A DNA stretch of 26,414 nucleotides from Candidatus Auribacterota bacterium (GTDB taxonomy: Bacteria; Auribacterota; UBA6266): contig JAGLRQ010000027.1 in the NCBI GenBank assembly GCA_023136205.1, positions 1 to 26,414 of the forward strand, given 5' to 3'. Made by a program: the position numbers and the translations under genes. This document shows positions 9,035 to 9,823 of this stretch, in pieces; position 1 is the first letter of the stretch, and every line of letters starts with the position of its first letter. The notes beneath the pieces were generated by a model, which did no database searches, was not told where the DNA came from, and was given only the letters and a program-made list of their open reading frames with translations.

Positions 9035-9763
9035 CTACGGTCTTCTCGTAGCTCCAGTGCCAAAAATAAACATTGCCAAGTCATCACCAGTATCTACGGG
9101 TAGAGGCAGAGGTATTGTTCCCCCACCATCATCAATACTATTTGCACCAAAACTGACAATCCTGGATGATAATCTTTCATTTTCGCCGGTTAATCCCGGA
9201 TTTCCATCCAATTCATCATAAATAACACGATATTCTCCAATTACTTCATCGGGATCAATGCTGCTGTCAACACTCTTACCCCAGGAGTCAATAATTAACG
9301 GATACCACTCGTCATCCGCGGGATTAGGTGTTCCTTTATCATCATAAGCAGTAATTTCCCGTTCTAAATAAGGCCCTCTCCAACCCTTATAACTATATTT
9401 ATCCCAATCTATCAAGGAAGGATTACCACATGCTGTTAGAAAAACAAGCATATCAGCCCGCTCACTTGCGCCATCATCTCTCAGGCAAAGAAGCTTAATA
9501 GCAAATTCTGATTTTTCGTCTCCACTACCCCGTATATCATCCGGCCCTAAATCTTCAGGAATAAGCCCTAAATTAGGATAAAACCTGTCTCTTATTGCTT
9601 CTTTAATGTCCCTCATCTCATTTAAAGCGGTGGTAACAGCCGCCTCTCCTTTAATGCGGGAAAAGTGGCCTGCAACCATTGCTGTAAGAAAACCCAAAAC
9701 CATAAGAACTACCAGTATTTCAAGGAGAGTAAAACCAGTTTTAGTCCATAGTCCATAGTCCAT
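9035..9763 (-). CDS. GspG-like (T2SSG-type) pseudopilin
   Basis: The track ORF runs to 9859. The likely start is ATG 9763, which gives a 10-aa leader MDYGLWTKTG|FTLLEILVVLMVLGFLTAMVAG. Using 9859 would give a 42-aa leader and overlap the upstream gene. T2SSG-type motifs: GWRGPYLE, DSWGKSVD, IVSFGANSIDDGGG. Confidence 0.8.
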   Translation of the reverse strand: MDYGLWTKTGFTLLEILVVLMVLGFLTAMVAGHFSRIKGEAAVTTALNEMRDIKEAIRDRFYPNLGLIPEDLGPDDIRGSGDEKSEFAIKLLCLRDDGASERADMLVFLTACGNPSLIDWDKYSYKGWRGPYLEREITAYDDKGTPNPADDEWYPLIIDSWGKSVDSSIDPDEVIGEYRVIYDELDGNPGLTGENERLSSRIVSFGANSIDDGGGTIPLPLPVDTGDDLAMFIFGTGATRRP

Positions 9764-9772
9764 AGTCCATAG
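9743..9772. repeat. Perfect 7-bp tandem repeat, AGTCCAT x4 plus AG, which is (ATGGACT)4 on the coding strand
   Basis: Read directly from the sequence. It covers the start and leader region of the 9035-9763 pseudopilin. Confidence 0.95.
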
Positions 9773-9795
9773 TTTTTTGTTTTTTTTTGCCGACC

Positions 9796-9823
9796 GTCGA
9801 CTGTAGACTGTTAACTGTAGACT
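9796..9823. repeat. 14-bp tandem duplication (GTCGACTGTAGACT / GTTAACTGTAGACT, 12 of 14 identical)
   Basis: Read directly from the sequence. It lies in the 64-nt spacer between the TPR-protein stop (9828) and the pseudopilin ATG (9763). Confidence 0.9.

Follow-up and report, generated by a model that had tools for sequence, protein, structure and literature searches.

Cyanobacterial genomes reportedly carry short tandemly repeated repetitive (STRR) heptamers, described by Mazel in 1990, and to our knowledge the role of such heptamer arrays has been open ever since. Repetitive extragenic palindromes (REP) and bacterial interspersed mosaic elements (BIME) are imperfect intercistronic palindromes thought to set relative expression via mRNA stability, and the leaders of type IVb prepilins comprise 15-30 residues with a Gly before the hydrophobic N-terminus. 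Here we analysed a heptamer array located in a prepilin leader of an uncultivated Candidatus Auribacterota (Aureabacteria) bacterium. The stretch studied, referred to below as the window, is the 26,414-nucleotide (nt) contig JAGLRQ010000027.1 of a metagenome-assembled genome (assembly GCA_023136205.1). The array, (ATGGACT)4, forms one arm of a module of 84 nt that lies where a minor (pseudo)pilin gene encodes its leader, and we tentatively propose that the module acts as an RNA hairpin at the junction of two coupled genes.

One of the closest described counterparts is the (ATCTTTC)n repeat of hmw1A and hmw2A in Haemophilus influenzae, in which, as in the array studied here, 7-nt units are repeated ahead of the functional portion of a gene for surface adhesion (PMC12721329, PMC8262952). 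The hmw1A repeat is one arm of a hairpin in the 5' untranslated region (5'UTR) that is processed by RNase III (PMC12721329), and a long cis-acting RNA hairpin with the repeat as one arm is likewise predicted for the window. Short 7-nt arrays of 2-6 copies are shared with the STRR sequences, the TAACTGA repeats (PMC4679880), and the GGGAATC-type repeats of Xanthomonas and Nostoc (PMC4692102), with four copies being the mode in Xanthomonas. Further points of likeness are that such arrays are mainly intergenic, often precede starts lacking a Shine-Dalgarno (SD) sequence, sometimes form inverted pairs, and occur in open reading frames (ORFs) at protein ends only; the unit family of the window (NTNGACT / AGTCNAN) is itself present in Cyanobacteria. 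In Streptococcus gallolyticus, repeats in a translated leader upstream of the pil1 pilus genes control pilus expression together with an RNA stem-loop, which also resembles the arrangement described here (PMC3894217).

The 84-nt module and its leader

On the minus strand, positions 9770 to 9743 of the window read (ATGGACT)4 with zero mismatches, preceded by CT and followed by A (9772 to 9742). Tandem Repeats Finder (TRF) reported this array, termed array B, at 9742-9773 with a period of 7, 4.6 copies, 100% matches, and a score of 64, and the expected count of the 28-mer was 0.00 in 100 dinucleotide-preserving shuffles of the window. The perfect repeat described in an earlier note on this DNA was thus confirmed by direct reading, TRF, and shuffling. 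Assemblies of ENA, Logan, and NCBI supplied 12 contigs with the identical sequence, indicating that it is not an assembly artefact. The arithmetic of the earlier note was also correct: the ATG of unit 2 (9763) is in frame with the cleavage motif G/FTLLE (the slash marks the cleavage site) and gives the leader MDYGLWTKTG, the ATGs of units 1 and 4 share a frame ending at a TAA right behind the array, the frame of the unit-3 ATG is closed after 15 codons, and the pilin ORF is open upstream of the array as far as ATG 9835 and TTG 9859. Gain or loss of one unit would shift the frame read from ATG 9835, with the third-from-last ATG remaining in frame.

Alignment with the closest orthologues identified an in-frame insert of 84 nt, or 12 x 7 nt and 28 codons, at 9743-9826 (minus strand). 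The window reads ATG AAT AAA, then the insert, then AAA ACT GGT TTT, and the insert-free orthologues L153 and L151 read ATG AAC AAA AAA GGT TTT and ATG AAC AGG AAA GGA TTC, respectively; the leaders of the two closest orthologues, P0002 (82% identical) and P0003 (80%), are MNRKG and MNKKG. In coding order, the insert is made up of ATA (3 nt), five AGTCNAC-type heptamers (35 nt), A9-C-A6-CT (18 nt), and (ATGGACT)4 (28 nt), with TAAAA at both flanks, as a target-site duplication of a mobile REP- or MITE-like palindrome might leave, but in a surrounding region that is A-rich. The five heptamers, termed array A (9789-9823, minus strand), are AGTCTAC, AGTTAAC, AGTCTAC, AGTCGAC, and GGTCGGC; they were recognized by direct reading, in the predicted fold, and by TRF, which reported 9799-9823 with a period of 7 and 77% matches. 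The 18-nt A-rich segment between the arrays (9771-9788, minus strand; KKNKK(L) in frame) contains the poly-A tract that the earlier note had placed upstream of the repeat (A9-C-A6 at 9788-9773). The two 14-mers that had been taken for a tandem duplication are present as well, but they are part of the five heptamers, that is, of a complementary hairpin arm, and their 6-bp palindromes (GTTAAC and GTCGAC) are inherent in the heptamer unit sequence.

Because AGTC is the complement of GACT, arrays A and B are imperfect inverted repeats. The insert folded with a minimum free energy (MFE) of -26.1 kcal/mol (z = -4.24, with none of 200 shuffles as stable), and in the MFE structure the arms were paired and the A-rich segment was left unpaired in the loop. 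The predicted hairpin would measure about 24 bp, each unit contributing one mismatch, array A being the 5' arm and array B (9743-9770, minus strand; ..WTMDYGLWT in frame) the 3' arm. The perfect complement of the ATGGACT unit, AGTCCAT, would in tandem produce TAG in all frames, whereas the units of array A (AGTCTAC, AGTCGAC) are free of stops, which fits a 5' arm translated from ATG 9835.

This ATG (9833-9835, minus strand) is the probable start of the gene. In P0002 and P0003, the orthologous start codon overlaps the stop of the same upstream tetratricopeptide repeat (TPR) gene, just as ATG 9835 does in the window (TAA at 9830-9828). Its frame is open across array A, the other two frames being closed, and Prodigal-type gene calls start there (P0001, 266 aa). 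The earlier proposal that the array forms the gene start was therefore not sustained; since the orthologous start codon corresponds to ATG 9835, the array probably lies inside a 34-aa leader and not at its beginning. The ATG of unit 2 (9761-9763, minus strand) is an alternative in-frame start with a 10-aa leader, annotated by NCBI (MCK4947024.1, 242 aa), so that NCBI and Prodigal-type callers differ on this gene (242 vs 266 aa).

The gene itself (9035-9835, minus strand) was assigned to a type IV pilus or type II secretion system (T2SS)-like cluster from its ORF, profile matches, and homologues. The array is followed by a 6-nt spacer, AAAACT (Lys-Thr), and the cleavage motif (9719-9742, minus strand), and the product has Gly(-1), Phe(+1), Glu(+5), and a hydrophobic N-terminal helix (G/FTLLEILVVLMVLGFL). 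The N_methyl profile scored 20.4 bits, just below its cut-off of 21.2, and PF07963 is found in homologues, which bear the name type II secretion system protein. Taken together, it is well supported that (ATGGACT)4 constitutes the 3' arm of a module of 84 nt that separates codon 3 from the Lys-x-Gly/Phe cleavage site of a minor prepilin, and equally well supported that the module belongs to a widespread class of short, STRR-like heptamer tandem arrays. Such a module can be tolerated in the leader because prepilin peptidase cuts the leader off. A promoter and terminator scan of 9600-10000 returned nothing on the coding strand and no terminator-like U-tract after the array, and Rfam 15 gave no match at the gathering score for the window and eight array-bearing loci, the sole hit being an unrelated tRNA.

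Arrays in related pilin genes and elsewhere

Four-unit arrays located 6 nt 5' of the G/F site were found in five further minor-pilin genes of two related organisms. The array of L006a, the locus of P0026 (39% identical to the window protein), reads ATGGACT ATGGTCT GTGGACT GTGGACT, and that of L007a, the locus of P0015 (40% identical), reads ATCGACT GTGGACT ATCGACT ATGGACT. Among the paralogues, L007b carries a perfect (ATGGACT)4 followed by AAGAAA, L006b carries GTGGACT ATGGACT GTCGACT GTCGACT followed by GATAAA, and L007c, a third pseudopilin gene, carries GTGGACT ATGGACT GTGGACT ATGGACT followed by AAAAAA. At L155b, a single unit is present in the same register and a 4-unit AGTC-type array occupies the untranslated gap. 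The 6-nt spacing to the cleavage motif recurs in 7 related arrays. Four units were found nearly throughout, diverged arrays included; the one exception, with 1 unit, has exactly 3 fewer, and the resulting 21-nt difference is in frame, as frame maintenance from an upstream start would permit. The comparison with related loci therefore gave no sign of the fast copy-number variation that had been anticipated.

Within the six 4-unit arrays from three organisms, heptamer positions T2, G4, C6, and T7 are invariant in 24/24 units, and variation tracks the heptamer R-T-S-G-A-C-T and not the codons. Five of the six array substitutions among the window, L006a, and L007a are nonsynonymous, while synonymous positions are fixed and the adjoining Gly codon varies (GGT, GGG, or GGC). 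These results indicate that the constraint acts on nucleotides with a 7-nt period rather than on the peptide, in agreement with the earlier view that it is something other than ordinary coding sequence. The array of L007c comes after an in-frame TAG, so that its unit-2 ATG is left as the only canonical in-frame start, implying that the third-from-last ATG singled out in the earlier note can be a real start; in the other five array genes, an in-frame ATG lies upstream and the frame is open. That part of the note thus has one clear precedent, although the start in the window is probably ATG 9835.

As judged from sequence, at least two distant lineages share the paired-array layout. When metagenomes were scanned for 2.6 or more units followed by GGN TTY AC, high-GC pilins whose leaders contain both arrays were retrieved, and the source names of relatives placed these pilins in the Acidobacteriota (Thermoanaerobaculia). 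The leader lengths of 118 GspG homologues (65-96% identity to the query) were bimodal, with 45 leaders of at most 21 aa and 62 leaders of 29-41 aa (mode 35-36), to be compared with 34 aa in the window. The repeats in the long leaders differ by protein, each apparently encoded as an inverted pair: STVDSPQSTV with CRLSTVDCRL, SVVGSRQSVV with YRLPTTDHRL, ETENGKRKT with SFPVSRFPF, KRKTLNVKR with SFHVSRFTF, and RVISRSGHRVIG with SPDHPITRSPD. When 62 long leaders were back-translated, hairpins were scored in 11/62 vs 0/62, an underpowered test in which degenerate codons saturate the score and which missed the verified hairpin of the window.

Long hairpins were confirmed at the DNA level for four types, in which the arms were AGTCGGT and ACCGACT in L182 (z = -3.7), AAAACGG and CGTTTCC in L183 (z = -2.15), CCCCCTC and GAGGGGG in L184 (z = -6.3), and the 8-nt units CGGGTGAT and (TCACCCGA)4 in L185 (401-508; z = -4.9). 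Five further GspG-type loci and another pseudopilin locus, L141, gave z values of -3.4 to -4.75, so that the ten Acidobacteriota loci (nine DNA-verified GspG-type loci and L141) ranged from -2.15 to -6.3; L132 gave -2.05. In all of these loci, L132 included, the start lies 1-4 nt past the upstream stop and is followed by the inverted array pair and then by G/F. The stop ahead of the ATG in the GspG loci belongs to an upstream GspG-like gene whose product ends in YKDW, and because there is no alternative start downstream, the hairpin sequence must be translated. The unit sequences are unrelated between loci (GTCGACT, ACCGACT, CGTTTCC, GAGGGGG, and the 8-nt TCACCCGA), and the use of 8-nt units in L185 shows that a 7-nt period is not obligatory, four units per arm being kept. 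In an alignment-free arm test, cognate duplexes averaged -45.6 kcal/mol and non-cognate duplexes -24.3 kcal/mol. The arms of L183, L184, and L185, the three most distinct types, co-varied, each having its cognate arm as the best partner in both directions, whereas arms of the GACT family were interchangeable and the pair in the window was not optimal. As a separate observation, the upstream GspG-like paralogues (L136 5457, L131 2339, and L137 2527) have repeat-like leaders of 20-36 aa, e.g., FRVSSFDFRFSIFEF, with z values of about 0.

Arrays were also detected outside pilin leaders. The secretin 5'UTR of L007 (11386-11457) contains a 4+4 inverted pair, AGTCAAC AGTCGAC AGTCCAC AGTCGAC and ATGGTCT ATGGACT GTGGACT ATGGACT, followed by TTTT, a strong SD (GAGGTGA), and ATG. 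A 4-unit AGTCCAC-type array in L155 (5806-5839) is read in frame within PilMN (SPQFTVHSPQ), where it replaces a variable loop, indicating that arrays can sit in mature proteins too. Within 72 kb of related loci, all arrays found were inside the pilus-cluster stretch, mostly at gene 5' ends. A scan of species-representative genomes yielded more than 120 arrays of the unit family (NTNGACT) in Bacteroidota, Chloroflexota, Cyanobacteria, Verrucomicrobiota, Omnitrophota, and others, including (ATGGACT)7 in Anabaena azotica, and none of these arrays adjoined a pilin gene. A protein search with the repeat-encoded leader returned, in other phyla including Bacteroidota, only spurious ORFs of 33-72 aa called over arrays; repeat-encoded leaders elsewhere thus also yield spurious "hypothetical proteins". 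It was also observed that an identical 28-mer, ATGGACT ATCGACT GTGGACT ATGGACT, occurs at L008, L015, L029, and L116, and with one change at L038. The four loci carry three assembly accession prefixes, i.e., they represent at least two and probably three metagenome-assembled genomes, and the 28-mer sits there in long non-coding mosaics of other heptamer arrays (TTCGTCT, AACTTAT, and GCCATTC). Such spread of a specific 4-unit module is not what local slippage would generate.

Weighing the explanations

Our preferred, though still tentative, reading is that the module is a hairpin acting in cis where two translationally coupled genes meet, with a function that we infer. In the polycistronic mRNA, the arms would pair and place the pilin initiation region at the base of the stem, which would hinder free 30S subunits, while ribosomes finishing the upstream gene would unwind the stem and could re-initiate on the pilin gene. 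The long double-stranded stem may also be a processing site, as for RNase III, or an mRNA-stabilizing barrier. Either route would set the amount of a low-abundance subunit relative to its neighbours. The in-frame ATG of unit 2 could provide a second, internal start, the mature pilin being identical from both. The hairpin role is supported by the insert, the coupled start, the fold, the recurrence of the architecture despite unit turnover, the leader lengths of the GspG homologues, and the nucleotide-level constraint. Arrays at further gene junctions of these clusters (the secretin 5'UTR of L007, and L155b with its A arm in the untranslated gap) and the hmw1A hairpin as a precedent speak for it as well.

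Several results weigh against this role. The module is missing in orthologues of 80-82% identity, i.e., its distribution is patchy. The SD-like AAGGAAG before the orthologous start is degraded to AAAGAAA in the window, which slightly favours the unit-2 ATG as the start. The stem in the window (about -25 kcal/mol) is weak in absolute energy, with z = -0.9 relative to other 126-nt segments of the locus, and its arms do not match each other well, as the 5' arm would pair far better with (GTCGACT)4. G·U pairs numbered 26 and A·C mismatches 12, but folding of the antisense strand was at least as stable in 8/9 loci; this absence of a strand-specific signal would also be consistent with a palindrome acting at the DNA level. 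Five related pilin genes with a 3' array only had no significant fold: z was -2.3 to +0.3 for L006a, L006b, L007a, and L007b, and L007c is without an upstream arm. Finally, L030 (Ratteibacteria) has a module consisting of an A-array, the A-rich sequence aaaaaacaaaaaa, and a B-array in non-coding DNA, and such arrays occur in 16 viral contigs, as would be expected of a selfish or mutational repeat.

A broader proposal, which we regard as more doubtful, is that prepilin leaders serve as a 'safe harbour' for a new class of structured cis-elements, present in type IV pilus clusters of the Auribacterota/Omnitrophota-like kind. Each element would pair two inverted arrays, with about four units of 7-8 nt apiece, in a stem of about 24-30 bp that is inserted in frame right behind a coupled start, and would set subunit stoichiometry by translational coupling or mRNA processing; the architecture would be kept while the unit sequence is fully replaced. 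This proposal would also explain the long leaders in more than half of the 118 Acidobacteriota GspG homologues, for which the hairpin is DNA-verified in nine GspG-type loci only. If it is true, tightly packed operons without intergenic space could write RNA structure into the discarded part of a protein, the odd 31-36-residue "leaders" called in many pilins and pseudopilins would be accounted for, and heptamer arrays, which are over-represented in many bacteria, would gain defined partners, a defined position, and a reading frame.

The main rival to the cis-acting hairpin is that the module is a tolerated, functionless selfish or mutational repeat, generated by slippage and template switching and persisting where it is harmless, in intergenic DNA or a disposable leader, provided that the frame is kept and stops are avoided. 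We consider this explanation rather unlikely, yet much of the evidence fits it: the more than 120 unit-family arrays in many phyla, none beside a pilin, and those in 16 viral contigs; the long non-coding mosaics of many array types, the module of L030 included; the spurious short ORFs called over arrays in Bacteroidota; the closest orthologues without a module; and arms in the window that are not optimized to each other. Heptamer simple sequence repeats are over-represented in Xanthomonas, where the mode is four units (PMC4692102), and repeats within ORFs are tolerated at protein ends only (PMC4679880, PMC4692102). Neutral decay and variation in number would be expected of such a repeat, yet six arrays from three organisms, at about 40% protein identity, keep 4 units, the 6-nt spacing, and 4/7 heptamer positions. 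Moreover, more than half of the GspG family retains a leader of 31-36 aa, and the nine DNA-verified GspG loci keep arm complementarity despite complete turnover of the units.

Less probable still is that the array works single-stranded as a platform for SD-less initiation at the unit-2 ATG, with units that bind the ribosome (S1) or a regulator with a 7-nt footprint and out-of-frame ATGs that act as decoys lowering expression. L007c, where the unit-2 ATG is the only canonical start, would behave in this way; unit 2 is ATG or GTG in 6/6 arrays with the 6-nt spacer, A-rich sequence precedes every array, partnerless arrays are predicted to be unstructured, and NCBI annotates the 242-aa product. 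The TAACTGA repeats also lie a few nt before SD-poor starts, and binding of S1, Csp, or CsrA has been proposed for them (PMC4679880). However, the window retains an intact orthologous start at 9835, no stop closes the frame across array A in 5/6 related genes, GTCGACT and ATCGACT arrays hold the same place without a start codon, and L155b, with one unit left, must start upstream. The preference for a start codon in unit 2 (6/6 vs 4-5/6 at other units) is not significant with six cases.

The earlier note had interpreted the repeat as a contingency locus, in which slipped-strand gain or loss of 7 nt switches or tunes pseudopilin expression at high frequency. The array does look the part, being a perfect tandem repeat where a surface-structure gene encodes its leader, so placed that a one-unit change would shift the frame from ATG 9835, and the HMW adhesins are known to be phase-variable through heptamer repeats (PMC12721329, PMC8262952). 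Site-spanning contigs were retrieved through the gene itself and, independently of the array, through both neighbouring genes. All 12 spanning contigs (at least 8 samples of one study series) had 4 units and identical flanks, the array-independent look-ups included; because the contigs are near-clonal, with 0-2 single-nucleotide polymorphisms over 3-7 kb, this excludes differing majority alleles and not minority variants. Assembly-level indels are visible in this population, since a homopolymer about 14 nt 5' of the major pilin SD (A7 at 11944-11950, minus strand) is A8 in L005 (ERZ23498458). This difference, which may be genuine variation or an assembly error, was the only such indel, so that a homopolymer of the same cluster appears to vary and the array does not. 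Four units fall far short of 11, the lowest natural repeat number of the hmw1A switch (PMC12721329, PMC8262952), the same number is kept even in diverged arrays unable to slip easily, and the internal in-frame ATG would blunt any on/off effect.

A contingency role is therefore quite improbable, and the expectation of switching was not borne out, even though orthologues differ in copy number (4 vs 1) and units are more alike within an arm than between arms, which points to slippage-type homogenization over evolutionary time. A break at the very edge of the array in one Logan contig could be read in favour of switching; this contig begins 1 nt before the array and is uninformative. What survives of the overall reading in the earlier note is a special element that does not act at the protein level and possibly affects translation, and what does not is a fast switch and, probably, the gene start. 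An apparent indel in L001 proved to be a scaffold gap of Ns, an artefact.

That the encoded peptide (LWTMDYGLWT in a long, Lys-rich leader) is itself functional, for example in targeting or prepilin peptidase recognition, is extremely unlikely: similar peptides occur in distant homologues (VDYRLWTKRG in P0015 and LWTMVCGLWTNAG in P0026) and type IVb pilins have long leaders, but substitutions are mostly nonsynonymous with conserved synonymous sites, unrelated peptides (CRLSTVD, YRLPTTD, SFPVSRF, and GRVGEWE) hold the same position in other lineages, and the closest orthologues function with MNKKG.

Four further candidates were rejected. CsrA-type GGA sites, or GGA serving as an SD, were discarded because ATCGACT and GTCGACT units lack GGA and the next ATG is only 2 nt off. 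Programmed frameshifting at ACT-AAA-AAA was discarded because no consistent slippery site exists across loci, and shufflon-type recombination between paralogues because the paralogue arrays within one genome are not identical. For a viral origin of the window array, 16 viral contigs have arrays and no link to the locus was found.

Pilus cluster and comparison with known systems

The cluster comprises, in order, the pilin, the TPR protein, three pseudopilins, PilMN, PilO, a secretin, and a PilT-like ATPase. The TPR-domain gene (9828-10811, minus strand), whose stop overlaps the pseudopilin start at the coupled junction, is conserved in L151, L153, and L155. The arrays in the 26-kb window (9743-9770, 9789-9823, 7982-8010, and 8036-8054) are all located at pilin gene starts. 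The third pseudopilin has a second repeat-encoded leader at 7982-8010 (minus strand), AATCACC AATTGCC AATTAACC AATCAACC, which gives MRNHQLPINQSTNNG/YALLIM; no structure is predicted for this array (z = +0.85), and ATG 8023 has a good SD (AAGGA) ahead of it. Just 5' of the SD of the same gene, at 8036-8054 (minus strand), is a short array with a 7-8-nt period, GAACAAG, GTTACAAG, and TTTACAA. P0016, a homologue of the minor pilin in another organism, has the leader NHQLPITNHQLTSRG/F.

Other features of the clusters were also observed. The leader of the major pilin, MCTKCTEKCKSRRNQG (11879-11926, minus strand), has three Cys residues, and the three ATG-containing segments that encode it (ATGTGTACTAA, ATGTACGGAAAA, and ATGCAAAAGC) are spaced by 11-12 nt, which is unusual for a prepilin. 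Genes for a DtxR-family iron-dependent repressor and/or FeoB stand beside the pilus cluster in the window (12483-14823), L006 (1054-1548), and L007 (1-690), and this synteny, common to three distant organisms, hints at iron-linked pilus regulation. In L006, the two array-bearing pseudopilin genes are separated by an insertion (6849-8456) of a gene for an omptin-family protease together with a MazE-type antitoxin pair, and a radical-SAM/SPASM gene with small ORFs is found upstream of the major pilin.

No description of such elements in prepilin leaders was found in the literature, and the nearest systems differ from the module in several respects. Compared with the at least 11, variable units of hmw, the window has 4, fixed units; the partner arm in hmw is a G-rich non-repeat and here a second, inverted array; and the hmw repeat lies in an untranslated leader, whereas the present one lies in a translated leader peptide that is cleaved off. 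RNase III cleavage and phase variation have been shown for hmw, whereas processing of the stem in the window is putative. None of the heptamer-array reports describes in-frame arrays in prepilin leaders, a fixed register to the cleavage site, or systematic pairing of arrays at coupled junctions. The pil1 system has a separate leader ORF, a transcription terminator, variable 5-nt GCAGA units, and a sortase-type pilus (PMC3894217); in the window, by contrast, the repeat is in the pilin's own signal leader, there is no U-tract, and no number variation was seen.

Long inverted repeats in coding sequence with both arms translated are also known from the mitochondrial coding palindromes of Nematomorpha, but these belong to another domain of life, have no tandem units, and lie within mature proteins (PMC6649704). 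REP and BIME elements resemble the module as imperfect palindromes between genes of one operon; REP sequences, however, are dispersed, untranslated copies of one family, whereas the units here are tandem, locus-specific, and translated. Type IVb prepilins share with the window protein a long leader ending in Gly. Their leaders are not repeat-encoded, whereas the orthologues of the window gene have short leaders (MNKKG/F) and its extra 28 residues are an insertion.

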